DNA from: Stegostoma tigrinum
Lineage: Eukaryota
Length of the DNA: 64,000 bases
Assembly (NCBI RefSeq): GCF_030684315.1
Contig: NC_081356.1
Location: 61,550,835 to 61,614,834, forward strand
Direction of reading: 5' to 3'
The notes beneath the pieces are model-generated. The model ran no database searches and was not told where the DNA came from. It saw only the letters and a list, made by a program, of their open reading frames with translations. Position numbers and translations under genes: made by a program. This document shows positions 300-61,760 of this stretch, piece by piece (positions within the stretch are counted from its first letter, which is position 1; each line of letters begins with the position of its first letter).

Positions 300-600
300 C
301 TCTTACTCCTCACCAGCCAAAACCCCCAAACACACACCTTCCTGGTGAAGCGACAATTTACTTGTCCTGCATTCAATCTAGCCTACGATATTCACTGCTC
401 ACAATGGAAGTTTCTTTACAATGACAAAACAAAAATAAAAATGGAGTAATTGCTTTGCAGAACACCTTCGCTCTGTCTGTATAAATTAGCCTGACCACCT
501 AGTTGCCTGCCACTTCATTAAACCATTATGGTCCCACACTACCATTTTGGCCCTGGGTCTGCTACAGTGTTCCAATGAATCTCAATGCAATTTGCACACA
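300..600 (+). mobile_element. Old degenerate Penelope-like element, GIY-YIG region (left part, interrupted by a younger copy at 601)
   Basis: Translates in pieces as HTFLVKRQFTCPAFNLAYDIHCSQ...CFAEHLRSVC...LVACHF...LGLLQCSNES, homologous to the C-terminus of the Penelope copy at 18200-18440; resumes at 3160. Confidence 0.75.
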
Positions 601-3159: not shown

Positions 3160-3523
3160 CAATTTGCACGCACCTTATTTTCCACGCAGGCACTTTACAG
3201 CCTATGGGATTCAATATTGAGTTCCACAAAATCAGAGTATGATCACTGCATTTCATTTCTCTAACATTCCCCATCCTCCCCCAGCCATACCTTGCTCATG
3301 TCTTCTCTACGCCCCCCCCCACCCCCCCCCCACCCCCGGATCCGGGTACCCTTACCATCCATTCCATGTCCTCCTTAAAAGTCAGCATTTTTCAGCTCTT
3401 TCACTTCCAAAGAAGATTAATAGTGGACTCAAAACATTAACTCTGTTTCTTTCTCCACAGATGCTGTCACACCTGCTGAATTTCTCCAGCTCTTTCTAGT
3501 TTATTTCAGATTTCCAGCATCTG
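3160..3523 (+). mobile_element. Old Penelope-like element, right part (C-terminus and terminal repeat)
   Basis: HLIFHAGTLQPMGFNIEF-like C-terminus, C-rich spacer, then a terminal repeat (ctctgtttctttctccacagatgctg...ccagcatctg) seen several times in the window. Confidence 0.75.
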
Positions 3524-3851
3524 GGGAGGTAATGGCCTGGCGGTAATATTGCGATCCTGGTAATGCTCTGTGGGCCTGGGTTTGATTCCTGCCATGGCAG
3601 ATGATGGAATTTGAATTCAATAAATAACTGGAATTAGAAGTCTACTGATGATTGTGAAATGATTGTTGGGAAAAAGCTACCTGGTTAACTAATGTCCCTT
3701 TAGGGAAGGAAACTTACCTGTTCTAGCCTACATTTGGCTCCAGACCCACAGCAATAGGCTGATACTTAACTGTTCTCTGGACACTAGGAATGAGTAATAA
3801 ACGTTGACCTTGCCAATGACAACCACAACCCATGAATGAATAAAAAAGAAA
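3523..3851 (+). mobile_element. tRNA-derived Deu-domain SINE (SacSINE1-like)
   Basis: A-box-like tggcctggcgg, B-box-like ggtttgattcc, core ctggttaactaatgtccctttagggaaggaaa, tail catgaatgaataaaaaa; atctg duplicated at 3519-3523 and 3852-3856; homologous to 57069-57426. Confidence 0.8.
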
Positions 3852-13296: not shown

Positions 13297-15400
13297 TCTT
13301 TCTGAAGACATTGGCTGATTCTTTACCTTGTAGCTCCCCCGGGGCAATTTTGCACTGGGTCAGGTTCCTCCAACTCTGTCTTGGATGCAGGTGATGTGTA
13401 ATGCACAGTAGCATGACTCTTATGCTCAGATTGTTTCAGAAAATATTAGTTACCTTTGCAGCCTGGAGAAGATATCAAGGAGGTGACATTAGCATTGTCC
13501 ACCTCAGATTCCAAAGTGATCTTCAACGCTCAGTGGAGAAGGAGAACCTGCTGGTTCCGGAACATGTGGAAAGGCTGTTGAGGAGCTCCCAACATGTGTA
13601 CGATTTTGCAGCTTTCATATGGCCCACATCCTTGATCAGGACCATCACATCTACCTCAAATTTGTATGCCACTGGACCTGATCTTGTGCTGATCATGCCC
13701 CTGACCCATGCAGAGCCACTCCCATGGTTCCTGCACCAAACCTTGTCCCCTGAAGTAAATTATCTATCTCGCTTAGCAAAGTCTAGTGTCTCGCATAGGT
13801 GTTCCTGATGCCATTTCATACCTGCCTCCACCTCAGGCCTGGGAAGCCCAGGTTTAACCTGGTGCAGGGTGTTCTTCACATTTGAAAACCTCCTGGAGCT
13901 ATACCTGTAGGTGCTTGAAGGGTGGTCTTAGAATTCATTAGGACCTGGTACAGTATGTATTTAGCGAAGTTGTTGGCTGTTCTTTAAGCCTGCCTTCAGA
14001 GTTTGGACTCCTCTTTCTGCCAGACCATTGCATGAGGGATTGTATGGAACTGTCCTTATGCATTGAATTCCATTCAAACTTAGGAAATACTCCCATTTCC
14101 TGTTGGTAAATGATGGCCTATTATCTGTAATCAGCACTTCCATGAGTCTTACAAAAGATGTACAGTTTTTTTATCTTTGTCCTCATGTTTGATGAATGTG
14201 CATCTAGCCACTTTGAGTGGCTATCCACAATGACTAAGAACATTGAGTTAATGAAAGGACCTGCATTGTTGATGAGTAACTGAGTCCAGGGCTCACCCAC
14301 CCATTCCCTTGAACAGGCAGCCGGACTGCTTGGATTGCTGGGAGGTGTGACCCACTGGGGCAGCAGCTGGTCAAGGTTGAGGATCCGGTAGATACCATGG
14401 ACTGGGCGAATATGGGACTAGTTTAGTTTGGGATTATGGTCGGCATGGGCTGGTTGGACCGAAGGGTCTGTTTCCATGCTGTGTGACTCTATGACTTTAT
14501 TGGGTGAGCTGCTGGTGGTAATTTTTGTTCTTGTCAGCAGTTTGGGCACTGCCCCACCAACACAGCAATGTCTGCATGCAGTCCTGGCCATTAGACATTT
14601 CTTCTAACCAACATCTTCATTTTGGAAATCCCTGGATGACCCTGGTGGAGTTCAGCCAGTACCTGGCGGTGGCCTTTGCTTCAGACAGTCATCCTTGCTC
14701 CACGTAACAATGTGCCATCTTCTACTGTGATCTGGTCTCTCTTGATCCAAAAAGACTTCAACTCTGGCTGTGATGGCCCTTTGGTTTCCCCATCACCACC
14801 AGCTGTTTCCATTTAGCCAAGAATCAATCCTTCTGTGTCCAAAGTCTGATATTGTCAGCTGTGACTGGAAGTGTGTCCAGAAAATTTAAAACCATGATGA
14901 ACTCTTCCAGTGGTGGTACCATCGGTGGTGTATCTGCCAATGGGAGGTGGCTCAATGCATCCACATTTGCTACTTGGCCCTCTGGATGGTATTCCAAGTT
15001 GTAATTATATGCACTTAGTATTAGAACCCACCACTGAATTTGGCATGAATCTATGGGTGGGCACTGCCTTGTCCTATTACATGGACCTAGTTGGAGTTTA
15101 TGATCTGTTATTAGTACAAATTTACATCCATAGAGGTATTTATGGAACGTCATAACTATAAATATAACAGCCAAACCTTCTTTCTCCATTTGGGCATATT
15201 TAATCTCCCCGCATTAGTGTAAGTCCTGTATACATTCACGATTGGCAATCCTCCGTTTCTTCACTTCCCTGAAAGCTATGCCTTGGCTATGTAACCATTT
15301 CCAAGACTGGCCTCTTCTTAGGAGTTGATGCAAACGTGCCAGGATAGAGGCCAGGTTATGTATGAACTTTCTATAATAATTCACATAATAATTCAGGATT
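13297..15400 (-). mobile_element. Degenerate Gypsy/Ty3 LTR retrotransposon pol (RT end, RNase H, integrase)
   Basis: VNYYRKFIHNLASILARLHQLL; RNase H EKEGLAVIF...FHKYLYGCKFVLITDHK...ANVDALSHLPL; integrase ITDNRPSFT...PYNPSCNGLAERGVQTLK. Confidence 0.92.
14400..14497 (+). mobile_element. CR1 3'-tail fragment inside the Gypsy element
   Basis: ggttggaccgaagggtctgtttccatgctgtgtgactctatgact matches CR1 tails at ~40180-40222 and ~63630-63685. Confidence 0.8.
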
Positions 15401-16150
15401 AATTGTGGATGATGTTCAACATTATGCAATCATTGGTGAACATCCTCACTTCTGAAGCAGCTGAAGATGGTTAGTCCAAGGAACTCCTGCAGAGATGTTC
15501 TTGATTTGACTTGGTTGACCTCCAGCAATCATAGCCATGTTCTTTTGTGTCAGATTGAACTCCAACCAGTGGAAGCTTTTGCCACTGACTTCCATTAATT
15601 AGTTTTGCCAAAGTTCTTTGATAGTATACTCAGTCAAATGCGGCCTTAATAACACCTTGCTCTGTTGTTCAACTGTTTTGAGCATTTGAACCAAGGCTCC
15701 AATGAGGTCAGGACCTAGGTGGCCCTGGAAAACCCAAACTGGGTGTCAGTGGGCAGATTATTGCTTTAGAAGTGCTATTTGGTAGCGCTATCATTGACAC
15801 CATGACCCAACCATGACTTTGATGATGGAGAATTGACTCCTTGGGCATTGATTGACTGCCTTTTGTGGCCAATACATACCTGAGACATATTTCCAATTTT
15901 CAGGTACATACCAGTATTTTAACTTTACAGGAACAACTTGGCAAGGGCCTGGTAAGTTCTGGAGCACATGCTTTCATTGATATCACTGATATGTTGTCAA
16001 GATTTATAATGTTCATAGTTTCCAGTGCCTTCACGTATTTCTTGATATCATCAATGTGGCTGATGCTTAGCATCTGTAATTTTAGACATCTCAGGAGGAG
16101 ACAGGGATAGAATTGCCATTTCTGACTAAAGCTGTAAACGAACACTTCAG

Positions 16151-18982
16151 AGATAACAAGGTAGAGAGCTGGATGAACGCAGCAGGCCAAATGGCATCAG
16201 AGGAGCAGGAAGGATGACGTTTCAGGCCTAGAACCTTCTTCAGAAATGTGGGATGGGGAGAGGGTTCTGAAATTAATACGGAGAAAGCGAGAGGCGGACA
16301 GAAGATAGATAAGGCAGATGATAGGTGGAGAGGAGACAGAAAAGTCAAAGAGGTGGGGATGGAGCTAGTAAAGGTGAGTGTAGGTGGGGAGGTAGGGAGG
16401 AGATAGGTCAGTCCAGGGAGGATGGACAGATCAAGGGGGCGGGATGAGGTTAGTAGGGAGGAGATGGGGGTGGGGCTTGAGGTGGGAGGAGGGGATAGGT
16501 GGGAGGAAAGACAGGTTAGGGAGCTGGGGATGAGCTGGACTGGTTTTGGGATGCGTTGGGGGAGTGGAGATTTTGAAACTTGTGAATTCCACATTAATAC
16601 CATTGGGCTGCAGGGTGGCATCATTGTGGCACTGCAGGAGGCCACCTCTTCATCTCCAACTGCTGTTGGGACATCAATCACCTCAACTTCTCCACCCCTC
16701 TCACCCACTTCAAACTCTCCACCACAGAACTCTGCCACAGCCTCTGCTCCTTCTGCTCCAATCCCAACCTCACCATAAAACCTGTGAACAAGGGAGGCGC
16801 AGTTGTAGTATGGCGCACTGACCTCTACGTAGCTGAGGCCAGGTTACCATCTATCCGACACCACATCCTACCGCCCCCTTGATCATGACCCCACCCCCGA
16901 TGACGATACCATCATCTCCCAAACCATCCACAACCTCATCATTTCAGGTGACCTCCCTACCACAACCTAAAACCTCATCGTTCCCTAACCCCGCACCACC
17001 AGCTTCTATCTCTTTCCCAAAATCCACAAACCTGACTGCCCTGGTCAACTCATTGTCTCCGCCTGCTCCTGCCCCACTGAACTTGTCTCCACCTATCTGG
17101 AATCCATTTTCTCCCCCTTGGTCCAGGAACTCCCTACCTATAGGACACCATCCACACCCTCCACTTCCTCCAGAACTTCCAATTTCCCGGTCCCCAACAT
17201 CTCATTTTTACCATGGGCCTCCAATCCCTATACACCTGCATTCTCCATGCAGATGGTCTAAAGGCCCTCTGCTTCTTCCTGTCCCACAGCTCTGACCAAT
17301 CACCCTCCACTAACACCCTCATCCGCTTAGCTGATATCGTCCTCACCCTCAACATCTTCTCTTTCAATTCCTCCCACTTTCTACAGAAAAAGGGAGTGGC
17401 CATGGGTACGCGCATGGGCCCAAGCTATGACTGCCTCTTTGTAGGGTATGTGGAACAATCCCTCTTCCATAGCTACACTGGCTCTAAACCCCACGTCATC
17501 CTCTGTTACATTGATGACTGTATCGGCGCCGCCTCATGCTCCCATGAGGAGCTCGAACAGTTCATCCACTTCACCAACACCTTCCACCCCAACCTTAAGT
17601 TCACCTGGACCATCTCTAATACCTCTTTCTCCTCCCTGGACCTCTCTGGCAAACACCTAGAAACCGATATCCATTTCAAGCCCACCAACTCCCACAGCTA
17701 CCTGGAATACAACTCCTCCCACCAACCTTCCTGCAAAAATGCCATCCCCTATTCCCAATTCCTTCGCCTCTGCCACATCTGCTCCAAGGATAAGGCATTC
17801 CACTCCCATACATCTCAGATGTCCTCGTTGCTCAAGGACTGCAAACTCTCCCCCCCAGTGTTCGAGAACACCCTCAACTGTGTCTCCCGCATTTTCCACA
17901 ACTCATCCCTCACAACTCCTCCCCACAAAACAATCAAAACAGAATCTCCCTCATCCTCACCTACCGCCCCACCAACTTCCAGATCCAATGCATCATCCTC
18001 CGACACTTCCGCCAACTGGATTTCCGACCCCACCACCAAAGACATTTTTCCTTCCCTGCCCTTATCTGCTTTCCAGAGGGACCACTCTCTCAGTGACTCC
18101 CTCGTCTGCTCCACACTCCCCTCCAGCCCCACCACATCCAGTACTTTTCCCTGCAACCACAGGAAGTGCTACACCTGCGTCTACACCTCCCCCCTCACCC
18201 CCATCCCAGGCCCCAAGAAGACTTTGCACATCAAGCAGATGTTAACCTATACATCTGCTACTATGGTATATTGCATCCGCTGTTCCCGTTGTGGCCTCCT
18301 CTACATTGGGGAAGCCAAACAGAGGTTTGGGGACCACTTTGCAGAACACCTACACTTGGTTCGCACTAAACAACTACGCCTCTCAGTCACGAACCACTTC
18401 AACTCCCTCTTGGGCCTCCTGCAGTGTCACAACGATGCTACCTGAAGGTTGCAGGAACAGCAACTCACATTCTGCTTGGAAACCCTGCAGCCCAATGGTG
18501 TCAATGTGGACTTCACAAGTTTCAAAATCTCCCCCCTCCCTACTGCATCCCAAAACCAGCTCAGCTCGTCCCCGCCTCCCTGACATGTTATTCTTCCCAC
18601 CTATCCCCTCCTCCGACATCAAGCCCCACTCCCATCTTCTACTTACTCGCCTCATCCCACCCCCTTGACCTGTACCTCCCCAATGTATTGACCTATCTCC
18701 TCCCTAATTCCCCACCTATACTCACCTTTACTGGCTCCATCCCTGCCTCTTTGACCTGTCTGTCTCCTCTCCACCTATCTTCTCCTCTATCCATCTTCTA
18801 TCTGCTTCCCCATTTCTCCCTATTTATTTCAGAACCCTCTTCCCCTCCCCCATTTCTGAAGAAGGACCTAGGCCTGAAACGTCAGCCTTCCTGCCCCCGA
18901 TGCTGCTTGGCCTGCTGTATTCATCCAGCTCTACACCTTGTTATCTCACATTCTCCACCATCTGCAGTTACTACTATCTCTG
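16151..18982 (+). mobile_element. Penelope-like retroelement (Neptune-type) with a 5' inverted terminal repeat
   Basis: 16151-~16643 is the reverse complement of the 3' region (~18410-18947). Body encodes RT (LQSLYT, QKKGVAMGTRMGPSY, YIDD), Cys linker CNHRKCYTC and GIY-YIG (VYCIRCSRCGLLYIGE). 15-bp duplication aaacgaacacttcag (16136-16150) / aaatgaacatttcag (18983-18997). Confidence 0.95.
18853..18886 (+). ncRNA. Minimal hammerhead ribozyme motif in the Penelope terminal repeat
   Basis: CTGAAGA-aggacctaggcct-GAAACGTC; inverted counterpart at ~16216-16243. Stem I is weak. Confidence 0.6.
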
Positions 18983-19892: not shown

Positions 19893-21248
19893 CATAGAAG
19901 TTATAGAGTCCCCACAGCATGGAAACAGGCCCTTCAGCCCAACAAGACCTCACTGCTCCTCAGAGCATACCACCCAGACACATCACCCTATAACCTACAA
20001 ATCCCTGAAAATTACAGGCAATTGAGCATGACCAATCCACCTAACCTGCACATCTTAGGACTGTGGGAGGAAACCCACACAGACACAGGGAGAATGTGCA
20101 AACTCCACACAGACAGTCGCCCAAGGGTATAATTGAACCCGGGGCCCTGGCACTGTGAGGCAGCAGAGCTAACCACTGAGCTGGCCAACAGAAGGCAGCG
20201 AGTGGTAGTAGAAGGAAAATATTCTGCCTGGAAGTCAGTGGTGAGTGGTGTTCCACAGGGGTCTGTCCTTGGGCTTCTACTGTTTGTAATTTTTATTAAT
20301 GACTTGGATGAGGGGATTGAAGGATGGGTCAGCAAGTATGCAGGCGACACAAAGGTTGGAGGTGTCGTTGACAGTATAGAGGGCTGTTGTAGGCTGCAGC
20401 GGGACATTGACAGGATGCAGAGATGGGTTGACAGGTGGCAGATGGAGTTCAACCTGGATATATGCGAGGTGATGCATTTTGGAAGGTCGAATTTGAAAGC
20501 TGAGTACAGGATTAAGGATAGGATTCTTGGCAGTGTGGAGGGACAGAGGGATCTTGGTGTGCAGATACATAGATCCCTTAAAATGGCCACCCAAGTGGAC
20601 AGGCTTGTTAAGAAAGCATACGGTGTTTTGGCTTTCATTAACAGGGGGATTGAGTTTAAGAGTCGTGAGATCTTGTTGCAGCTCTATAAAACTTTGGTTA
20701 GACCGCACTTGGAATACTGCGCCCAGTTCTGGTCACCCTATTATAGGAAAGATGTGGATGCTTTGGAGAGGGTTCAGAGGAGGTTTACCAGGATGCTGCC
20801 TGGACTGGAGGGCTTATCTTATGAAGAGAGGTTGACTGAGCTCAGACTTTTTTCATTGGAGAAAAGGAGGAGGAGAGGGGACCTAATTGAGATATACAAG
20901 ATAATAGAGGCATAGATAGAGTTGATAGCCAGAGACTATTTCCCAGGGCAGAAATGGCTAACACGAGGGGTCATAGTTTTAAGCTGGTTGGAGGAAAGTA
21001 TAGAGGGGATGTCAGAGGCGGGTTCTTTACACAGAGAGTTGTGAGAGCATGGAATGCGTTGCCAGCAGCAGTTGTGGAAGCAAGGTCATTGGCGTCATTT
21101 AAGAGACTGCTGGACATGCACATGGTCACAGAAATTTGAGGGTGCATACATGAGGATCAATGGTCGGCACAACATCGTGGGCTGAAGGGCCTGTTCTGTG
21201 CTGTAGTGTTCTATGTTCTATGTTCTATGAGCCATCATGCCACCCCAT
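19893..21248 (-). mobile_element. HE1-like V-SINE (19893-20181 plus 21228-21248), split in its tRNA head by a CR1 insertion
   Basis: Reverse-complement V-domain and tail; head aaccactgagc resumes after the CR1 as gagccatcatgccacccc. Confidence 0.85.
20182..21227 (+). mobile_element. Young 5'-truncated CR1 LINE (RT C-terminal half and 3' UTR)
   Basis: Frame open to 20915: SGVPQGSVLG, FINDLDEG, KYAGDTK, WQMEFN, LYKTLVRPHLEYC; tail (ctatgtt)n; tgagc on both sides. Confidence 0.95.
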
Positions 21249-30044: not shown

Positions 30045-30180
30045 AAAAAACCCAAAGAATTGTGAATGCTGGAAGTCAGAAACAAGAACAGAAATTGCTG
30101 GGAAAACTCAGCTGGTCTGGCAGCATCTATGGAGTGAAGGCAGGGTTAATGTTTTGGGTCTGGTGACCATTGTTCAGAAT
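30045..30180 (-). mobile_element. Solo Penelope terminal repeat (older family), tail present
   Basis: Homologous to 61605-61745 and to the reverse complement of 49096-49233; degenerate hammerhead at its inner end. Confidence 0.75.
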
Positions 30181-30280
30181 GGACCATTTCTAATTCTGCA
30201 TTCTACAACAAGCTTGGTATTACTCCACTGTCCAAAAAATGGTTTGGGAGAGCTTCAGTTTCCTCCTTAAATACTGAGAA

Positions 30281-32870
30281 GGGGCGGTGATGGCCTAGTT
30301 ATGTAATTGCTAGGCTATTAATCCAGAAACTCAGGTATTGTTCTGAGGACAAGGGTTCGAATCCTGCTAATACACATGGTGGAGTTTTAATTCAATAAAA
30401 AAAGGCTGGAATGAAGACTCTACTGGACAATTATCAATTGTCAGGGAAAAACCCATCTCGTTCACTAATCTGCTTCCGGAAATGAAGTCTGCCTGCATGT
30501 GACTCCAGACTCACAACAAATGTTATTGATTCTCAATTGCCCTCTGAAATGGCCTAGCAGATCAATCAGTTGTATCAATCTCTACAGAGTCACAAAGGAG
30601 TGAAGTTAGATGGATCATCTGGCATTGACCTGTGCACCGGAAAAGACTATGCCAGAAACAGTCCTGTCAAACCCAGAAAGCCCTCCTTACTAACATCTGG
30701 GAGCTTGTGCCAGAATTGGGAGAGCCATCTAACAGACTAGTCAAGCAACATCCTGACATAGTCATTGTCACAGAATCATACCTGACCGGCAATGTCCCAT
30801 ATACTACCATTTCCTGATGTGTCCTGTGCCAACAGCAGGACAGAATCAGCAGAGATGGCAGCACAGTGTATGCAGTTGGGAGGGAGCTGCCCTGGGAGTC
30901 ATCAACAACAACAAAAACAGAAGTTGCCGCTAAAGCTCAGCAGGTCTGGCAGCATCTGTGAAGAAAGCAACAGAGTTGACGTTTCGGGTCCAGTGACCCT
31001 TCCTCTCCTTCACAAACGTTGTCAGACCTGCTGAGCTTTTCCCTCAATTTCTGCTTTTGTTCCTGTTTTACAGCATCCGCAGTTCTTTCGGTTTTTGTCT
31101 GGGAGTCCTCAACATTGAGGGACCCTGTGAAGTCTCGTGCTTTCAGGTTAAACATGGGCAAGAAAACTTCTTGCGGATTCTTGCGGATTACCATGTTCTC
31201 CCTCAACTGATGAATCAGTACTCCTCCATATTGAACAATACTTACAGGATGCCAAGAGTGCAAAATGTGCTCTGGGAAAGATATTTCAATGCCAGCCACC
31301 AGGAGTGGCTCAGTACCAGTACTACCGATCGAGCTGGTTGGTTCCTAAAGGACATAGCTGCGAGACTGTGTCTGCAGCAGGTGATAAGGGAACCAACAAG
31401 AGGGAAAAACATACCTAACCTCATCCTTACCGTTCTACCGGCTACAGATGCACTTGTCCATTACCGCAGTAATAGTGACTACTGCAGATTTCTAGTGGAA
31501 ATAAAATCCTGCCTTCACATTGACAATACCTTCCATCATGTTGTGTGACACTATGGCCATGGTAAGTAGGACAGACATTGAGCTGATCTAGCTACATAAG
31601 ACTGGGCATCCATGAGGGTCTGTGGCCATAAACAGCAACAGAACTGTATTCCAGCACAATCTGTAATCTCATGGCCTGGCATATCTCCCACTTGACCATT
31701 ACCATTAAGCAGGGGATCAACTCTGGTTCAATGGAGAGTGTAGGAGGGCATGCCAGGAGCAGCCTCAGGCATACCAAAAAATGAGGGGTCAACCTGCTGA
31801 CGCTATCAATCAGGATTACTTGCAAGCCTAACAGCATAAGCAGCAAGTGATAGCTAGAACTACGTGACCCCACAACCAGCAGATCAGATATAAGCTCTGC
31901 AGTCCAGCCACATCCAGTTGTGAATGCTGGTGGAAAATTAAACAACTCACTGGAGGCCGAGTCTCCAGAAATATCCCCATCCTCAATGATGGAGGAGCTC
32001 AGCCCATCAGTGCAAAAGTTAAGGCTGAAATATTTGCAGCAATCTTCAGCCAGAAGTGCATGAACCATCTTGGCCTCCTCCAGTGGTCCCCAAATTTGCA
32101 TATATAAGCCTTCAGCCAATTTGTTTCACTCCATGTGATATCAAGAAATGGCTGGAGGCACGGAATACCTCAAAACTATGGACCTTGACAACAATCTGGC
32201 AAAAGCACAGGAGGCTGGAGAACCTGCTGCTCCCCAGCCAAATCTTTCCAGTACAGTTACAACATCTACCCGATAACATTGAAAATCCCCCTGGCATATT
32301 CTGTCCATAAAAGGCATGACAAATCCCACCCGGCTAATCACCTCCAATTACTCTCAATCACCAGTAAAGTGATGGAAGGTGTCATCAACAGTGCTATCAA
32401 GCAGCATCTGCTCAGCAATAACTTGTTCAGTGATACCCAGTTTGGGGTCTGCCAGGGCCACTCAGCTCTTGATCTCATTACAGCCTTGGTTCAAACATGG
32501 ACAAAAGAGCTGAATTCAAGAGGTGAGGTGAGAGAGACTGTCATTGATATCAAGGCAGCACTTTACCAGATATGGCAACAAGGACCCCCAGCAAAACTGG
32601 AATCACTGGGTATCATTTGGCAAACTGCCCAGTGGGTTGAAGTCATACCTGACACATAGGAAGATGGTTGTGGTTGTTGGAGGCAAGTCATCTAAGCTTC
32701 AGCATTCTATGCAGGAGTTCCTTAGGGTAGTGTCTTAGGCCCAACCATCTTCTGCTGCCTCATAAAGGACCTTCCCTCCATCATAATGTCAGAAGTGGGG
32801 ATGTTTAGTGATGATTGCAGAGTGTCCAGCACCATTTGCAACTCCTCAGATATTGAAGCAACCCACATTC
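30281..32870 (+). mobile_element. CR1-group LINE with a tRNA/Deu-SINE 5' head; degenerate endonuclease-RT, 3' part lost
   Basis: 30281-30546 aligns with the SINEs at 3523 and 57069 (A box tggcctagt at 30291, B box ggttcgaatcc at 30354-30364). Then LLTNIWELVPELGE...PDIVIVTESYL, EPTRGKNIPNLILT, LLSITSKVMEGVIN, DIKAALYQIWQQG, GVPxGSVLGP, MFSDDC. Confidence 0.85.
30908..31098. mobile_element. 191-bp palindromic mini-Penelope insertion (inverted plus direct terminal repeat)
   Basis: Left arm acaaaaacagaagttg...aagctcagcaggtctggcagc pairs with right arm gtcagacctgctgagctt...ttctgcttttgt; 16-bp duplication ctgggagtcatcaaca (30892-30907) / ctgggagtcctcaaca (31099-31114). Confidence 0.88.
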
Positions 32871-33220
32871 GAATGATTTGATTTATTATTGCGACATAAA
32901 AAAATACAGTGAGAAGTTTTATTTTGCATGCTCTCCAGACAAATCATCCCTTACGTAAGCACATCAGGGTAATAGAACAGAATGCAGATTATGATGTTAC
33001 AGCTAGAGAGAAGGTACAGAGAAAAATCAACTTGAATATATGAGTTGTCCGTTTATAAGACTAATAACAACAGGGAAGAAGCTGTTCTTGAATCTGTTTG
33101 TACATGTTTTCAAACTTTTGTATCTTTTGCCTAATCAAAGAGGATGAAACAGAGTATAACAGGGGTGGAAAGGGTCTTTGATTATGTTGGCTGCTTTCCC
33201 TGAGGCAACAGGAAGTGCTA
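32870..33220 (-). mobile_element. Rex1/Babar LINE 3' end
   Basis: Reverse complement resembles 8150-8490 (aacagcttcttccctg, cactgtatt...aataaatcaaatc). Confidence 0.75.
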
Positions 33221-36773: not shown

Positions 36774-39700
36774 ACCATGTGCTGGCGAGGTGAGGAATAG
36801 GGAGAGAGAGCAGTTAAACACGTCGCTATAGGTATGGTGCAGGAGGGAGGGATTCAGATACCTGGATAATTGGGGCTCTTTCTGGGGTAGGTGAGACCTC
36901 TACAAACAAGATTGTCTACACCTGAATCAGAGGGGTACCAATATCCTTGGGGGAAAATTTGCTAATGCTCTTCCAGAGGGTTTAAACTAATTCAGCAGGA
37001 GGATGGGAACCTAGCTCCAGTGTACAGGAGGTTGAGAGTGGTGAGGTCATGAATAAGGTTTCAAGGTCGCAGGAGGGTGGTTTGAAGTGTGTCTACTTCA
37101 ATGCCAGGAGCATTTGGAATAAAGTGGGTGAATTTGCCGCATGGGTTGATACCTGGGACATCGATGCTGTGGCCATTTCAGAGACATGGATACAGCAGGG
37201 ACAGGAATGGTTGTTGCACGTTCTGGGGTTTAGTTGTTTCAGTAAGATCAGGGAAGGTGGTAAAAGAGGGGGAGGTGTGACATTGTTAGTCAAGGACAGT
37301 ATTATGGTGGCAGAAAGGATGTTTGATGAGGACTCGTCTACTGAGGTAGTATGGGCTGAGGTTAGTAACAGGAAAGGAGAGGTCACCCTGTTGGGAGTTT
37401 TCTACAGGCCTCCGAAAAGTTCCAGAGATGTAGAGGAAAGGATTGCGAAAATAATTCTAGATAGGAGCGAAAGTAACAGTGTAGTTGTTATGGTGGACTT
37501 TAACCTTCCAAATATTGATTGGAAATGCTACAGTTTGAGGACATTAGATGGGTCAGTTTTTGCCTAACGTGTGCAGGAGGGTTTCCTGACACAGTATGTA
37601 GATAGGCCAACAAGAGGTGAGGCCACATTGGATTTGGTACTGGGTAATGAATCAGTTCAGGTGTTAGATTTGGAGGTGGTGAGCACTTTGATGATAGTGA
37701 CCACAATTCGGTTACGTTTACTTTAGTGATGGAAAGGGATAAGTACATATTGCAGGGCAAGAGATATAGCGGGGGGGGGCAAAGCAATTATGAGGCAGTT
37801 AGGCAAGATTTAGGATGCATAGGATGGGGAAGGAAACTGCAGGGGTTGGGCGCAATTGAAAAGTGGAGCTTGTTCAAGGAACAGCTACTGTATGTCCTTG
37901 ATAAGTATGTACCTGTCAGGCAGGGAGGAAGTGGTCGAGCAAGGGAACCGAAGAAGTTGAATCTCTTGTCAAGAGGATGAAGGAGGCTTATGTAAAGATG
38001 AGGCGTGAAGGCTCAGCTAGGACACTTGAGAGTTACAAGTTAGCCAGGAAGGATCTAAAGAGAGAGCTGAGAAGAGCCAGGAGGGGACATGAGAAGTCTT
38101 TGGCAGATAGGCTCGAGGAAATCCCTAAAGCTTTCTATAGGTAGGTCAGGAATAAAAGAATGACTAGAGTAAGATTAGGGCCAGTCATGGACAGTAGTGT
38201 GAAGTTGTGCATGGAGTCTGAAGAGATAGGAGAGGTGCTAAATGAATATTTTTCATCAGTGTTCACAAAGGAAAAAGACAATGTTGCCGAGGAGAATACT
38301 GAGATACAGGGTATTAGACTAGAAGGGATTGATGTTCATTCATAAGGAGGAGATGTTAGCAAATCTGGAAAGTGGGAAAGTGTGAAAGTAGATAAGTTCC
38401 CTGGGCCAGATGGGATTTATCCTAGGATTCTCTGGGAAGCTAGGGAGGAGATTACAAAGCCTTTCATTTTGATCTTTATGTCGTCAGTGTCTTCAGGAAC
38501 AGTGCCAGAAGACTGGAGGATAGCAAATGTTGTCCCCTTGTTCAAGAAGGGAAGTAGAGACAACCCTAGTAATTGTAGACCAGTGAGCCTTACTTCGGTG
38601 TGGGTAAAGTGTTGGAAAGGATTATAAGATATAGGGGTTATAATCAAGTAGAAAGGAACAATTTGATTAGTGATAGTCAACATGGTTTTATGAGGGGTAG
38701 GTCGTGCCTCACAAACCTTATTGAGTTTTTGGAGAAGGTGACCAAACAGGTAGATGAGGGTAAAGTAGTTGATGTGGTGTATATGGATTTCAGTAAAGCA
38801 TTTCAGAAGATTCCCCATGGTATGCTATTGCAGAAAATACAGAGGCATGGGGCTGAGGGTGATTTAACGGTTTGGATCAGAAATTGGCTAGCTGTAAGAA
38901 GACAGATGGTGGTGATTGATGGGAAATGTTCATCCTGGAGTTCAGTTACTAGTGGTGTACCGCAAGGATCTGTTTTGGGGCCACCGCTGTTTGTCATTTT
39001 TATAAATGACCTGGATAAGGGCATAGAAGGATGGGTTAGTAAATTTGTGGATGACACTAAAGTCGATGGAGTTGTGGACAGTGTGGAAGGATGTTGCAGG
39101 TTACAGAGGGACATAGATAAGCTGCAGAGCTGGGCTGAGAGGTGGCAAATGGAGTTTAATGCGGAAAAATGTGAGGTGATGCACTTTGGAAGGAGAAACA
39201 GGAGTACAGAGTAGTAGGCTAATAGTAAGATTCTTGGTAGTGTGAATGAGCAGACAGATCTCGGTGTCTATGTGCATAGATCCCTGAAAGTTGCCACCCA
39301 GGTTGATAGGGTTGTTAGGAAGGCGTATGTTGTGTTAGGTTTTGTTGGCAGAGGGATTGAGTTTCAGAGCCATGAGGTCATGTTGCAGCTGTACAAAACT
39401 CTGGTGCGGCCGCACTTGGGGTATTGTGTACAGTTCTGGTCATCGCATTATAGGAAGGATGTGGAACATTGTAAAGGATGCAGAAGAGATTTACCAGGAT
39501 GTTGCCTGGTATGGAGGGAAGGTCTTATGAGGAAAGGCTGAGGGACTTGAGGCTGTTTTCGTTAGAGAGAAGAAAGTTAAGAGGTGACTTAATAGAGACA
39601 TACAAGATCATCTGAGGATTAGATAGGGTGGACAGTGAGAGCCTTTTCGCTCGAATGGTGTTGGCTAGCACGAGGGGACATAGCTTTAAATTGAGGGGTG

Positions 39701-39936
39701 ATAGATATAGGACAGATGCCAGAGGTAGGCTCTTTACTCAGAGAGTAGAAAGGGCGTGGAATGCCCTGCCTGCAACAGTAGTAGGTTTGCCAACTTTAAG
39801 GGCATTTAAATGGTCAAAGGATAACCATATGGATGATAATAGAATAGTGTAGGTTAGATGGACTTCAGTTTGGTTTCACAAGTCAGTGCAACATCGAGGG
39901 CCGAAGGGCCTGTACTGCACTGTAATGTTTTATGTT
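36774..39936 (+). mobile_element. CR1 LINE with the ORF1 3' end and near-complete but disrupted ORF2
   Basis: ORF1 esterase-like end (DCLHLNQRGTNILGGKFANAL); endonuclease YFNARSI, AISETW, GVFYRPP, VDFNLP; RT KFPGPDGIYPR, QHGFMRGRSCLTNL, DFSKAF, GVPQGSVLGP, FVDDTK; tail tgttttatgtt; ctaga on both sides. Confidence 0.95.
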
Positions 39937-40469: not shown

Positions 40470-41105
40470 TTGCCATTTCAGTTTAACATCCTGCTCTCAG
40501 ACCAACATCTTTGTCCATGACCTGCTCCAATGTTCAAGCAAAGCCTAGCACAAGCTAAAGGAATAGTATGTCATTTTTCATTTAGTCACTTTACAGCCTT
40601 CATTACTCAGCTTTGGGTTCAACAGCCTTAGATTATGAATTCTGTCCTCAATTTTGCTTCCATCCCCCTAAAACCCCACTCCAGTATCTTGTTTGTCTGT
40701 GCTTGCTTTCAGCTGAGTTCATTTATTATCTGCTATTGAAACCTACCCTTAACTCCTAACCATCATCTATATCCCTAATACCATTATCACTCTCAGTCTT
40801 TTGCTCTGGGCACTTTTACTTATATGTTCTGCTTGCTCTTCCTCCCAATTTCTGCTGCGCAAACACCATCACTTTTCCAGATTGATTTTTTGAAGAAGGG
40901 TCTCGACCCAAAATTTCAGCTTTCCTGCTCCTCTGATGCTGCTGGCCTGCTGTGTTCATCCAGCTCTTCACCTTGTTATCTCACTTTTCCAGACTGTTAC
41001 AGTTTTGAAGAGGAGTCATTGTGGACTTGAAAAGTTAGCTTTGTTTCTCTCTCTCTCCAGATGCTGCCAGATCTGCTGAAACTCTCCAGCACTTTCTGTT
41101 TTACT
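40470..41105 (+). mobile_element. Old Penelope C-terminus and terminal repeat, hosting a young terminal-repeat insert
   Basis: HKLKE*YVIFHLVTLQP-like end; terminal repeat with degenerate hammerhead ttgaagaggagtcattgtggacttgaaaagtt at ~41005-41036. Confidence 0.7.
40885..40982 (+). mobile_element. Tail-less terminal-repeat fragment of the young Neptune-type family
   Basis: tgaagaagggtctcgacccaaaatttc...ccttgttatctc; flanked by tcacttttccagattg (40869-40884) / tcacttttccagactg (40981-40996). Confidence 0.85.
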
Positions 41106-46253: not shown

Positions 46254-47080
46254 CCATCTGACTTAGCCATATTCACAGAATCATATCTTACAGGCAATGC
46301 CCCAGACGCCATCCATCATCTTCTCTGGTTATGTCCTGTCTCATTGGCAGGGCAGACCCACCAGAGATGATGACACAATGTTTATAATCAGCATGGAGTT
46401 TTCAACATTAGTTCTGGACCCCCTGAAGTCTCATTCCACCAGTTCATATGTAGGCATGGCCTCCTGCTGATTATCACTAATACTCTCGCCCTTTGGAGGA
46501 TGACACTGTGCTCCTCCATGTTAAATACCACATGGAGGAAGCTCAGAATGTGGCAAGGCAGCCATACTTTTGTTCAGCGAATTTGAATGCTCATTATCAG
46601 GAGTAGCTCAACAACATCATTATTGATCGAGCTGGGTGAGTCCTAAAGGACATTGTTGATAGACTGGGTCTGTGGCAGATGCTGAGGGAGCCAACAGGTA
46701 GACAAAAACATACTTCAAATAATTTTCAGTAATTTGCCTGCACAAGTACATCTGTCCCAAACAGTAAGAGTTACTGCCATGCAGTCCTTGCACAGATGAA
46801 GTTCCATTAAGGATACCCTCTTTCATGTAGTGTGGCACTTGGAACATATCGAGTAATTCAACTTTGGTCATCTATGGGGCGCGGTGGGCCATCAGGAACA
46901 GTAGAATTGCACTCCAACACAATCTACAACCTTATGGCATGGAATATTCTGACTCAACCATTGTCATCAAGCCAGGGATATAACATTGGCTCAACAGAGA
47001 GTACAGGAGCACATGCCGGGAGCAGAGCCAGGCATTCCTAAAAATCAGGTGTCAACCTGTTGAAGCTACCAAACAGGACG

Positions 47081-47890
47081 AGAGTCATAGAGACATAGAG
47101 ATGTACAGCACGAAACAGACCTTTTAGTCCAACTCGTCTATGCCAACCAGGTATCCTAAATTAATCTAATACCATTAGCCAGCATTTAACCCATATCCCT
47201 CTAAACCCTTCCTAAGCACATACCCATCCTGCTGCTTTTTAAATGTTATAATTGCAGCAGCCTGTACCACTTCCTCTGGCAATTTATTCCATGCATGCAC
47301 CACCCTCTATGTGAAAAGAGTTGCCCTTTGGGGTCTGTTTTAAATGTTTTACCTCTCACTTTAAATCTATGCCCCCTAGTTTTGGACACCCCTATCCTTA
47401 GGACATGGCCTAGACTATTCATCCTATCAAGTTCTCTCATGATTTTATAAACTTCTATAAGGTCATCCCTTAGCGTCCAACACTCCAGAGAAAATATCCC
47501 CTCGACAATTCAGGCTTTCCCTTTCACTTTTGTAAACCTTTTCTGAACACTATCAGGTTTCACAATATCTTTCCTATAGAAGGAAGCCCAGAATTGGGCA
47601 CAATATCCAAAAAGTGGCCTTTGCAACAACACGACCTCCCAACTCCTACACTCAATGTGCTGACCAACAAAGGCAAGTATACCAAACATCTTCTTCACTA
47701 TCCTATCTACCTCCAACTCCACCTTCAAGGAAATACGAAGCTGCAATCCAAGGTGCGTTTACTTTGCAACACTTTCCACAGACTTACTGTGAAATGTATG
47801 AGTCCTGCCTTGATTTGCCCTACCAAAATGTTGCACTTCACATTTATCTAGAGTAAACTCTATCTGCCACTCCTCAGCCCATCGGCCATC
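47081..47890 (-). mobile_element. CR1 3' part inserted antisense in the LINE above
   Basis: Minus ORFs RWAEEWQIEF...CEVQHFGRAN, YCAQFWASFYRKDI, SKTRGHRFKVRG; CR1 tail at 47081-47140. Confidence 0.88.
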
Positions 47891-49095
47891 TATTAGAGTG
47901 TTGCAGCAACAGTTAGACTGAACTGAGTGATCCCACAACCAACGATCAAATCTAAACTCTGAGGTGGTGCTACATCCAGTCATGAATGTTGATGGACAAT
48001 TAAACAACTCACAGGAGGAGGAGTGTCAATGAGGGGAGAGCCCATAACATCAGTGCAAAAGATATGGTAGAAGCATTCACAGCAATCTTCAGCCTGTGCT
48101 GTCAAATGCAAGGATCCATCTTGGCCTGTCCTATTGGAGCCCAGCATCACAGCTGCCAGACTTCTAACAGTTCGATTCACTTCATGTGATAACAAGAAAT
48201 GGCTAAAGGTATTGAATACCATAAAATCCATGGACCCTGACAACATTCCAGGAACAGTACAAAGGACATGTGCTCCAGAATGTACTGAGAGTTCAGCCAA
48301 GTTGCTCCAGTATAGATATAACACCATTATCTACCTGACAATATAAAAATTGCCCAGGAATGCACTGCACACCAAAGGTAGGAGAAATCCAACGAAGTCA
48401 ATTGCCACCCCATCTTCTCTCAATCCATAGTAAAATGATAAAAGGGCTCATCAACAGTGCTAACAAGGTGCGGTAGCTCAGCAGTAACCAGCTCAGTGAC
48501 GCCTTGATTGAATTCTCCCACTGCCACTCAACTCCTAAATTCAATACCGCCTTGTTTCCAATATGGGTAAAAGAGCTTAATTGTTGAAGGAAGGTGAGAG
48601 TAATTGGAGCCCTAACAAAAGAATAATCAACACAAATCAGGGAGGAACTCTCTGCTGATTAGAGTCATACCCAGTTCATAGGATAATGGTTGTGGTGTGG
48701 GAGGTCAGCCATCCCAGATCCAGGACCTCTCTGCAGGAGTTCCTAACAATAGTGTCCTAGGACTAGCTATCTTCAGTTCTTTTATCAAAGTCCTTTCTTC
48801 AATGTCAGTACCTAGGTTGATGTTTGTATAAGATTCAGCACCATTCACATCTTCTTAAATGCTAAAGCAGTCAAATTCAGAAAAGTCCTGAAAAAATCAG
48901 ATTTGGGGTGAAAACTGACATCCATGCTATGCAAGACCCAAGCAATGACCATCTCAAACAAGAAACAATCTAATCATCACCCTTCATCTTCAATGGCATT
49001 ACAATCACTGGAACTTTCTGCATCCTGGGGGTTAATGTTGACCAGAAAATCAACTGAACGAGTTTGGTAAATACTATCACTACAAGAATGTTCCT

Positions 49096-49233
49096 TAGTT
49101 CTGAGGAAGGATCACCAGACCTGAAAAGTTAACTCTGATTTTTTCTTCACAAATGCTGCCAGACCTGCTGAGCTTTTTCTGCAACTTCTGTTTTCTTTTC
49201 TGATTTACAGTATCTGCACTTCTTTCAGTTTTT
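49096..49233 (+). mobile_element. Penelope terminal repeat (older family) with hammerhead-like core and tail
   Basis: agtt-CTGAGGA-aggatcaccagacct-GAAAAGTT-aact followed by the conserved repeat and tail. Confidence 0.8.
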
Positions 49234-52200
49234 ACTTTCTAAACCCATGGCCGCTTCCATTTAGGGCAAGAGTCACAGATTATGGAAACACTGCCATCTA
49301 CATGTTCCCTTCTAATCCACCCACCATCCTGACTTGGAAATACATTGCTGTTCCCTCAGTGTTGCTGGGTTCAATTTCTGGATCTCCTTTACATACACCA
49401 TTGTTGTTCTACATTCAGCACATGGACGGCAATAGTTCAAAAGGAATCTCAGCACCAACTTCTTAAGGGCATCTAGAGATGAGCAATAAATGCTGGCACA
49501 GCCAGTGAATCCTACATCCCCTGAATGAATAAAAAACTACATAGCTTTGATCTTGGAGCGTTTGGGTTAGAAAGGAAGAATTAGAATGCATCTCTGATTC
49601 TGATCACTGTCCTATTGACACTTATTTGTTGATACCAGATGAGGATAGCACTGGTCTTCACTGTGACGGCTGTACTAGTCAATTAGCTTGATACTTTTAA
49701 ATTTCATGTTGCAATAATGCTCAAGGCATAAGCAGGACGATGTTATTCATAAGGTTATATCCCATAAACAGTCATTGCTTTAAGGATGGGATGGAAGTAA
49801 AAATTCAATTAAGCTGTTTAAAATGGCATTTGTTATTTATTATTGCAGATCTGTAAGAAGTATATTTTACAGTTTTGTATGTGAGCACAAAGGTGCAGAA
49901 CATGATTTCACCAAAGCTAACTTAGCTGAAAGACATATGGAACTTGTTATTGCCACTACACCCATTACATTTTTCTGCAAAGCTTATTCCATCCAAACCC
50001 AAAGTATATACCATTGACTGCTGGAAGAAGGATGTATATTTGTAGCAATTGTAGCAGGCCAGCAGCATCTAGAGGTATTTGATTCTGCAACAATCATTGC
50101 TGCCATCAAAACGTTTCTAAAGCATCTAAATCTTATATGAGCTGTGACTTCTCTCATCCAACAGAAAAGCATCTAGCATTTTATAAACTGTGCAAGCTAT
50201 ATTCTTTGAGAAAACATTGTGCAAACATATTCAATCTGTCTTGTATGTTAGCCTATATAACATACTTCACAGAGATGGGTTTTTATTGAGGTAGATGTCT
50301 TGATATTTATTAACAACGTTATCTATTAACACTACTATAAAGCCTCACACTTAGATATTTTGGGTTCTATGCTTGCTGAATTCATCACTACATTACAAGA
50401 TTGAGTAACTGACGATACAATATGCTGACTCCAGAATACTGAGAATGTTGATGGTGAGCTGCAGACCTATGTGCTGACCTATCGCATACCTTGATGTCCT
50501 GTAACAGTATAAAAGGTAATTGCATATTTGGGCATTTATGGAATAACACACTACATCACTTAATTCAATTTCCCAATATTCAGCTATTTCCAATTTGTGA
50601 AAATCCACAAAAATGCAGAAATTTCTGAAACCTAACCTACATAGCTTCTTGTCTTGCTAAGATATGCTAACTGTTCACACTGAATTATTGAGCAAAGATA
50701 AATTCTGGCACATCATAATATGTGCCAGACTCCAAAATATTTTTAAGATGATGGCAAAATCACACACAAAGCACCACTAGTTTTTCAAGTAGGGTGAGGG
50801 TGCACAAAGGCAAGCAGGTATATTTCCAGCCAAAGAAAAAATTTGTCTGAAATGTACTTTAGCGGAATGAGAAGTAATATTCGCCATAGAATAAATCACA
50901 GTTTTTCCTAGCAAGTCTTCATAAGAGAAATCATGGTGTGAGTGAGTAATTTTTGAAAACTATGACTAACAATTAGAACATTTCCAACTTCTTCAAATAT
51001 TTATCATGCATTTTACATTAATTTTGACTCTAATCCAAACAGCATTTGGATGTGATGGGTCTGATTTAGTTTAGATTCATTACAATGTCGTTAATTATTC
51101 AATTCCAATTAAAACAAAACAAATTCTGTGCATATCCCAGGGTTACGACTGTTTATAACAATGCAATGAAAAACAAAACATAGACATAAATAATGCAACT
51201 ATTAATTTGTTACATTTTAGATGATCTGTCAAATCTCAAAGCATTAAAAGGCATAAATTACTGGCTGCTTATCATAGGAGTGCACCTTGGCCACACCATG
51301 GTACTGATTCCTAAGTGTCAGGCATTTTGTTGCAAGCTGTAATGAGGTGCATTCTGTCATAACTTGCTAATACAAATGTAAGGCATATGCTCAAATATTC
51401 TGATGAGGATTATATAGCATATTTCCTGATACTGATTGTGTTAAAATTTAAGGACTTACTTTTAGATTTTCAACACTGGAGATTCGGGGGAAGGGGATTC
51501 CTTTTTATGGCCCTGCTCAGGAATTCTCAGAGCCAGCAGTGAAAAATGTCTTTGTCGAAACCCTGCACCTTTTGCAGCAGTCAATATGCCATGTTCTGCG
51601 GTTGAAATATCCAATAGCACCACCAGCCACTTTGAGAGTTCCTGCTAAAACATGAGTTTGGGAAGTAAGTGTGAGATGGGGTAGCAGCTAGTTCAGGGGT
51701 TAGGGTGTTAGGTAGGCAAAGGTTATGTTGGCGGTAGGGTATGGGGAAAATGTAAAATGGCAGGTTGGTGAGGCCAGTAGTGTGCCAGAGGAGTAAGGTG
51801 CTTGTTGGGTGTGGTGTGCCAAGAGGGTGAGATGGGTTGGATACCAGATGGTTAGGATGTCAGGGTGATAAGCAAGTGAATGAGTCTGTAGGATAGTTCA
51901 GGTTTCGCTGTGTGTCAGATTGGTCTGATGGATGGGAGTGGTACAGCTGAGTGGTGCACAGCCAGCAATATGGCGGAGGTGGGCGTGGGTACTGTCATGT
52001 CCTGTATCATTGTTACAGGATGGATGGAATTGGAGGGAATTAGTGTGGAATGGGTCTGTTTAAGGGTAGTTGTCAAGTGTATGGGGAGCATAAGGGGTCC
52101 GCGAAGGTTTAGCTGAGAATCAGCAGTGAGAGGGGACGTCAGTTTAGTGATTATCCAGGAGTTTCCCGGGATATTATTAAGCTTAATCGAGTCAGAACTC

Positions 52201-57068: not shown

Positions 57069-57426
57069 GGGGAGGTGATGGCCTAGTGGCAGTAATGCTA
57101 GACTATTAATCCAGAGACCCTTATACTATTCTGTAGACCTGGATTTGAATCCTGCTATAGCAGATGGTAGAATTTAAATTCAATAAGTATCTAGAATTAG
57201 GAATCTAGTAGTGACCACGAAACCATTGTTGATTGTCAGGAAAATAAAAGACACCTCTGGTTCACTACTGACCTTTAGGGAAGGAAACTGTTATCTTTAC
57301 ATGGTCTGGCCTACGTATGATTCCAGACTAACAGCAATGTAGTTGACATCTAATGCAATTGGGGATGGGTAATAAATACTAGCCTAGTCAGTGACAACTA
57401 CATCCTGTGAATGAGTTTAAAAAAAA
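57069..57426 (+). mobile_element. Full-length tRNA-derived Deu-domain SINE (SacSINE1-like)
   Basis: A box tggcctagtgg, B-box-like gatttgaatcc, core tctggttcactactgacctttagggaaggaaa, tail gggtaataaatactagcctagtcagtgac...atcctgtgaatgag plus A run. Confidence 0.85.
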
Positions 57427-61604: not shown

Positions 61605-61760
61605 GAAAACTGAAAGAACTGCAGATGCTGTAAATCAGGGACAAAAACAGAAATTGCTGGAAAAGCTCAGCAGTTCTGGCAGCATCTGTGAAGAAAAAAT
61701 CGGAGTTAAACATGTCGGGTTCAGTGATCCTTCCTCGGAACTGATGGTAGTTAGGAAAAC
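61605..61760 (-). mobile_element. Solo Penelope terminal repeat (older family), tail present
   Basis: Reverse-complement homologue of 49096-49233; hammerhead core degenerate. Confidence 0.8.

Follow-up and report, generated by a model that had tools for sequence, protein, structure and literature searches.

A tRNA-type head on the ORF1-less Zenon LINE of sharks and rays: a SINE built of the LINE's two ends, and a putative Pol III promoter

Described elements and the locus

By the usual division, LINEs are Pol II-transcribed and protein coding, and SINEs are Pol III-transcribed and noncoding. The closest described relatives of the element reported here are the elasmobranch Zenon LINEs of Stuart et al. 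2026 (PMC13343379), CarCar_, RhiTyp_, ScyCan_ and HypSab_Zenon-1 and SquAca_Zenon-1/2/3, which belong to the same family and, like our element, have an endonuclease and a reverse transcriptase, no ORF1 and an A tail in 2.9–3.3 kb. According to that paper, Zenon lacks ORF1, ends in poly-A and occurs among vertebrates only in elasmobranchs, coelacanth and hagfish; the elasmobranch consensuses, from great white, whale shark, catshark, dogfish and stingray, are 2,886–3,314 letters long, and its table scores ~600–2,300 copies per species. Both the family and the absence of ORF1 from it are thus already published, and the head that we describe sits unremarked in the public consensuses: the main text contains neither "tRNA" nor "promoter" and is silent on a head, a SINE partner and a T-run deficit. 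Our own copy is dead and 3′-truncated. Persaeus of Lepidoptera (PMC6740152) is likewise nonautonomous and joins the 5′ end of a Zenon LINE to its 3′ end, but it is described without tRNA similarity or a Pol III promoter, whereas in sharks the derivative and the LINE both carry a putative one. Kojima 2018 (PMC5786205) describes bipartite SINEs in the RTE and Vingi clades, which also take their body from a LINE 5′ UTR and their tail from a LINE 3′ end; there, however, only the SINE acquires a small-RNA head, the LINE is a Pol II unit, and the paper finds such SINEs in these two clades alone. Cassandra, Helenus and Ajax (TRIMs, PMC10886601) are further non-SINE retroelements with a small-RNA Pol III promoter, but they are described as nonautonomous LTR elements of 0.3–1.3 kb that code for no protein. 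Our search of the literature, with Repbase, Dfam, subscription journals and bioRxiv supplements outside its scope, turned up no autonomous LINE described as tRNA-headed and of Pol III type, and four motifs from the window, searched in the main texts of papers, led only to unrelated work.

The stretch of DNA that we analyzed, the window, comprises 64,000 nt of Stegostoma tigrinum contig NC_081356.1 and holds the following features of the family:

30281..30375, plus strand: tRNA-type head, starting on the same base as the free SINEs
30376..30571, plus strand: 5′ UTR body, common to LINE and SINE
30572..30685, plus strand: LINE-only linker from the SINE-shared part to the endonuclease, as in contigs and published consensuses
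30600..30740, plus strand: upstream frame of 46 codons, overlapping the endonuclease start in a different frame
30683..31560, plus strand: AP-endonuclease part of ORF2, decayed
30908..31098, no strand assigned: palindromic insertion, later than the LINE and foreign to the family, with a 16-nt flanking duplication (30892–30907 and 31099–31114)
31700..32875, plus strand: linker and reverse-transcriptase part of ORF2, decayed
3523..3851, plus strand: free SINE of 329 bp, LINE 5′ end fused to LINE 3′ end
57069..57426, plus strand: free SINE of 358 bp, LINE 5′ end fused to LINE 3′ end
46254..49536, plus strand: second family copy, 5′-truncated within the endonuclease, with two insertions and the A-rich 3′ end retained
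49464..49536, plus strand: LINE 3′ end, equal to the SINE tail
15381..16110, minus strand: third family fragment, reverse-transcriptase region

The focal element, 30281–32875, is a decayed copy of Zenon, a LINE of the CR1 group, and is truncated at the 3′ end: the reverse-transcriptase region ends abruptly at ~32875 and the tail is absent. A first, sequence-only reading of the window had given its head an A box and a perfect B box; the latter, GGTTCGAATCC, lies at 30354–30364, and an A box is indeed present at 30291, though its 3′ end has decayed in this copy. ARAGORN calls a tRNA at 30287–30375 only when its threshold is lowered to 80%, and Rfam detects neither a tRNA nor a ribozyme, whether across the window or in the decayed heads. 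A tRNA origin of the head is based on the boxes and this relaxed call, and the head may resemble a long-arm tRNA such as tRNA-Leu. Between the first base and the endonuclease, whose N terminus (LLTNIW...PDIVIVTESYL) occupies 30683–30785, lie 402 nt that hold only the 46-codon frame, leaving no space for an ORF1, and the head runs into the endonuclease as the first reading had it. The decayed reverse-transcriptase piece matches RVT_1 at E 3e-5, under the Pfam cut-off, and is 57–82% identical to predicted proteins, some of them named as shark; tblastn with intact relatives reaches both the endonuclease and the reverse transcriptase. The palindromic insertion interrupts the endonuclease, its flanking duplication having one mismatch, and belongs to a repeat family of ~190 bp with relatives at 30046–30179, 49097–49233, 61606–61742, 3424–3520 and 41022–41102; another member sits inside the second Zenon copy.

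Aligned from 30281 onward and from the same starting base, the element is identical to the SINE at 57069–57426 at 194 of 254 positions (76%) and to that at 3523–3851 at 210 of 284 (74%), the local alignment scoring 184 against a maximum of 39 among 200 shuffles. Over 64 and 61 nt, the tails of the two SINEs are 75% identical to 49473–49536, the 3′ end of the second copy (score 64, at most 35 among 200 shuffles); an A-run at 49531–49536 shows that this copy retains the poly-A tail, and in the focal copy the 3′ end is gone. The SINE therefore consists of the first 270–290 nt of the LINE and its last ~70 nt, with the middle missing. The shared head and core, the common tail and the composition of ~270 plus ~65 nt had all been proposed from the letters alone, and all have held up. 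The switch point needs amending: ~30546 is right for both window SINEs, but a form seen in many contigs elsewhere is shared to 30571, and there are thus two SINE junction forms.

The class assignment did not survive. The body had been taken for a Deu core and the LINE for the parent of the Deu-SINEs, but the body shares no motif with the printed Deu alignment. Two Deu motifs taken from that alignment (supplement of PMC7245038) have 4 and 2 three-mismatch matches in the window against 3.7 and 1.5 expected by chance, and none of these falls in the head or the SINEs; by eye, the body is also unlike the printed alignments of the Meta and UCON3 central domains. The Deu-SINEs SacSINE1 and LmeSINE1, with partner L2-2_CM (PMC5499810), are likewise tRNA-headed, found in cartilaginous fishes and equipped with a LINE-type tail. 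SacSINE1, however, is described as 463 bp long with a Deu domain and an L2-type tail (PMC5499810, PMC2746220), whereas the window SINE is 330–360 bp long with no Deu motifs and a Zenon tail; we considered SacSINE1 with L2-2_CM as its identity and, in an indirect comparison, rejected it on the missing motifs, the lengths of 329 and 358 bp and the match of the tail to the Zenon 3′ end. The element has the marks of a tRNA-derived SINE (SINE2), its tRNA-related head containing both boxes and its 3′ end being common to a partner LINE; by eye, no target-site duplications are evident around two old copies. It keeps both ends of the LINE, as Persaeus-type elements do, but unlike them it has Pol III boxes. 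The finding gives no explanation of Deu-SINEs.

The head-to-endonuclease junction in other copies and species

As first noted, the fusion is visible in only one of the three family copies of the window; the second copy and the fragment at 15381–16110 both lack their 5′ ends and are therefore uninformative on the head. We aligned contigs of four of the 14 listed runs on 30185–30904 at 80% likeness: X8, which has the locus itself, and X2, X7 and X4 from three other organisms. Dozens of divergent contigs overall, in all four runs, cover the junction, and at the 5′ flank, 30185–30232, the only contig is that of the locus itself. Within the linker, letters unlike the window were read in 52, 3, 56 and 63 contigs at 30587 and in 44, 12, 40 and 44 at 30633 (X8, X2, X7 and X4, respectively). 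Among the 15 joints listed, of 264, 11 connect the SINE-shared part with the endonuclease, and the head itself is joined onward in three contigs (two of X8, one of X7). In run X2, 237 loose ends at 30578 continue as LINE and 85 at 30571 continue as tail, which by eye matches 49464 onward. Separately, one X8 contig joins 30334 straight to 30700 and represents an independent, internally deleted copy in which part of the head leads to the endonuclease start.

Contigs that bridge only the body and the endonuclease would equally fit a LINE without a tRNA head, and three head-bearing contigs alone do not exclude chance; it is the published consensuses that close the gap. In Supplementary Table 2 of PMC13343379, over the first 400 letters of each row, all seven elasmobranch Zenon consensuses (five species) open with head and body and continue with the linker, matching 30281–30690; the closest by eye is RhiTyp_Zenon-1. 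Two exact window motifs have seven and six matches within these letters, exclusively in elasmobranch Zenon rows. Similarly, two B-box strings have six matches among ~1,000 rows, each of the six in an elasmobranch Zenon consensus, and two further B-box variants have none; the remaining comparison of window and consensuses was made by eye over the same 400 letters. The A and B boxes are, within these consensuses, retained at the exact 5′ end across five orders. The hagfish and coelacanth Zenon consensuses have, by eye, no tRNA-type head. The junction has thus turned out not to be unique to this locus, full-length family members do not begin with an ordinary 5′ UTR and ORF1, and the real family of ORF1-less LINEs headed by a tRNA-type sequence, which the sequence-only reading had put forward, is found both in the contigs of the four runs and in the seven consensuses. 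We regard the overall structure, a tRNA-headed LINE with no ORF1 and a SINE made of its joined ends, as practically certain. We assign the focal element to elasmobranch Zenon on the match to the consensuses, a quick tree of 138 proteins having contained no named references.

The nearest intact outside relatives are ~40% identical and lie on contigs of 3.4–4.3 kb. A profile of head and body matches none of 160 related loci (best E 3.6). ARAGORN, run on 60 of them, makes one call, on the minus strand and overlapping the ORF2 match, at default settings that would miss the focal head too; a pattern of A and B boxes, which itself misses the focal head, has two poor matches in 30 loci. A DNA motif spanning the junction has no match in metagenome and viral contigs, and protein alignment finds no relative in viral contigs. 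As no head was seen among the 160 loci, the head looks like an elasmobranch gain. The absence of ORF1 appears to be old in the group, since a long ORF1 is missing from 33 of the 63 relatives for which 600 nt or more of upstream sequence is available; 21 of these 33 (L024, L083, L086, L089, L096, L108, L138 and others) code for a 2A-like peptide ending in NPGP just before the endonuclease, which is absent from the shark element. By eye, a similar 5′ UTR motif recurs in the ORF1-less relatives L001 (135–180), L082 (535–580) and L138 (315–360) and in EptBur_Zenon-2. Within the prokaryote genome collection, 431 of 464 candidate stretches code for LINE-type proteins (L081–L160), and many of them lie in MAGs of animal symbionts and are likely host DNA that was wrongly binned.

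Whether the LINE or the SINE had the head first is a separate question. Since Zenon of hagfish and coelacanth and the 160 loci appear to be without it, the LINE gained its head from somewhere, and it may have taken it from an older SINE. A Zenon-tailed SINE would then have come first, the LINE would have acquired its head and body by template switching, and later exchange would have kept the heads alike, all of which is compatible with Pol III use by the LINE. Module exchange among SINEs is documented, and nothing like the body turned up in the 5′ UTR of an outgroup Zenon; together with the headless outgroups and loci, this gives the order some appeal, but we consider it rather unlikely. Lepidopteran Zenon yields internal-deletion derivatives in the form of Persaeus (PMC6740152), the SINE exists in two junction forms, and SINE and LINE have lineage-specific head letters in common. 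By eye, four head positions distinguish the whale-shark consensus from those of other species; at these, the window LINE agrees with whale shark four times, the SINE at 57069 three times (one position unclear) and the SINE at 3523 three times (one deleted). The heads of SINE and LINE thus seem to have changed together, which is compatible with recurrent deletion from the LINE and also with ongoing exchange. All in all, we find it quite probable that the present SINE arose by deletion from the LINE.

T-runs, transcription and translation

Pol III terminates at runs of at least four T, and its RNAs are uncapped. They are also held to be short (PMC10886601). We counted T-runs on the sense strand of the three window copies, insertions excluded, and took the expectation from base composition. 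Pooled, the three have six runs of at least four T (T4+) against 16.2 expected (P 0.004) and 39 of at least three (T3+) against 64.4 (P 0.0005), a statistic that comes from three decayed copies of one ancestor, which hence are not independent; runs of A, C and G are not depleted in them. As controls served two CR1-type LINE copies (36986–39837 and 20133–21115) and two retroelement copies, 79% alike, at 600–2841 (minus strand) and 16644–18946 (plus strand), the translation of which looks Penelope-like to us; these four have 27 T4+ runs against 26.0 expected and 113 T3+ runs against 102.0. None of 78 full-length relatives on metagenome and MAG contigs is equally poor in T4 (minimum ratio 0.46, median 1.14), and a single one of them, with 19% T, has T3 as low. 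Of 258 overlapping segments of the window, not one is equally T4-poor. The coding part of the focal copy has no T4 in 2,003 nt against 4.9 expected; its single T4 lies at 30385, where most contigs read none. The alignment columns common to copies 1 and 2 contain no T4, one TTT and 13 AAA, the control pairs having 15 and 9 TTT, and random decay of 20% alone predicts about four T4 runs, which is the count in copy 2. The scarcity of terminators that the sequence-only reading had proposed as a check is found in the pooled copies; in the focal copy alone it falls short of significance against dinucleotide-preserving shuffles, with one T4 against 3.6 (P 0.11). The Phe codons, eight TTT and 16 TTC, do not differ significantly from other codons ending in T or C (P 0.27). 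Because the sense strand is poor in T-runs, unlike the control retroelements and the 78 relatives, we think it likely that the full-length LINE was transcribed by Pol III.

How its protein would be made is less clear. The codon at 30600 is GTG in the window but ATG in most other contigs and, over the letters compared, in six of the seven consensuses. An AUG is thus conserved here, yet it is out of frame: in the window and the stingray consensus the codon lies 86 nt before the endonuclease CTT codon, and no common indel is listed for this stretch among the contigs. Close to its start, the endonuclease frame has no AUG. In the predicted protein P0002 the upstream and endonuclease frames are fused, an indel in its copy being the likely cause. 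We see no classic slippery site, and the endonuclease start and upstream frame, used as protein queries, brought up eight and 15 candidates, not one of them with an E of 1 or less. With its conserved AUG out of frame with the endonuclease, the LINE would need a −1 shift, initiation at a codon other than AUG or internal initiation to make ORF2p.

Our best explanation is that the locus holds a dead, ORF1-less Zenon of ~3.3 kb in which, judging from boxes and T-runs, the tRNA-type head likely acted as an internal Pol III promoter for the whole element and the SINE is likely a product of internal deletion. TFIIIC would bind the A and B boxes of the head, and Pol III would initiate at the head's first base, pass the T-run-poor ORF2 and the A tail, and terminate at a T-run in the flank. 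The uncapped LINE RNA would be translated cap-independently; ribosomes might start at the conserved AUG and reach the endonuclease, which is in another frame, by a −1 shift, and ORF2p would copy its own RNA and, by way of the common 3′ end, that of the SINE; the head would have been acquired in the elasmobranch lineage. The proposal in its fullest form, that elasmobranch Zenon is an autonomous protein-coding element made by Pol III from end to end, with a captured tRNA promoter, terminators purged from 3.3 kb, an uncapped RNA read via an out-of-frame AUG and a SINE formed by repeated internal deletion, seems to us evenly balanced between right and wrong.

Its main competitor, which we consider unlikely though to be taken seriously, holds that the head is a captured passenger: the LINE would be made by Pol II, from a promoter in the body or by host read-through, only the SINE by Pol III, and the T deficit would have some other cause such as the avoidance of U-rich splice or decay signals. 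LINEs are indeed described as Pol II units (PMC5786205, PMC10886601), AATAAA is present at the LINE 3′ end, a capped RNA is easier to translate, and the dinucleotide shuffles fell short of significance. A mere passenger, however, sits poorly with boxes retained at the exact 5′ end in the consensuses of five orders, and the depletion is confined to T, to the sense strand and to the Zenon family, being absent from the CR1 and Penelope copies of the window and from the 78 relatives. A tRNA-like fold could alternatively be a processing signal: RNase P would trim read-through RNA of the host back to the first base, by analogy with the self-cleaving ribozymes of other LINEs. This would account for the exact 5′ start, and the focal head, compared with 200 shuffles, has a better fold than any of them (z −2.95), albeit not a cloverleaf; but the head of the SINE at 57069 folds at chance (z 0.48) and the T-run deficit is left unaccounted for, making this improbable. 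Folding of the tails and the body gave z from −1.85 to 1.38 and no firm structure. Finally, a one-off junction, left by a SINE that landed by or recombined with a single LINE copy, or a LINE that is parent of the Deu-SINEs, is scarcely credible: the head is seen in only one of the three window copies, but the others lack 5′ ends, the junction is multicopy in four organisms and present in all seven consensuses, and Deu motifs are missing.

Implications for the family

Because the family is so abundant in the species scored, the preferred reading, Pol III transcription of the LINE from its own head, lends itself to immediate testing with public genomes and RNA. If true, it would break the division between LINEs and SINEs, as sharks and rays would share a LINE with a retained tRNA promoter and few T-runs on the sense strand. 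The birth of a SINE would then take a single step, the deletion of the middle, and the capture of a head would be unnecessary. The family would also provide a natural case for how an uncapped Pol III RNA of 3 kb gets translated.
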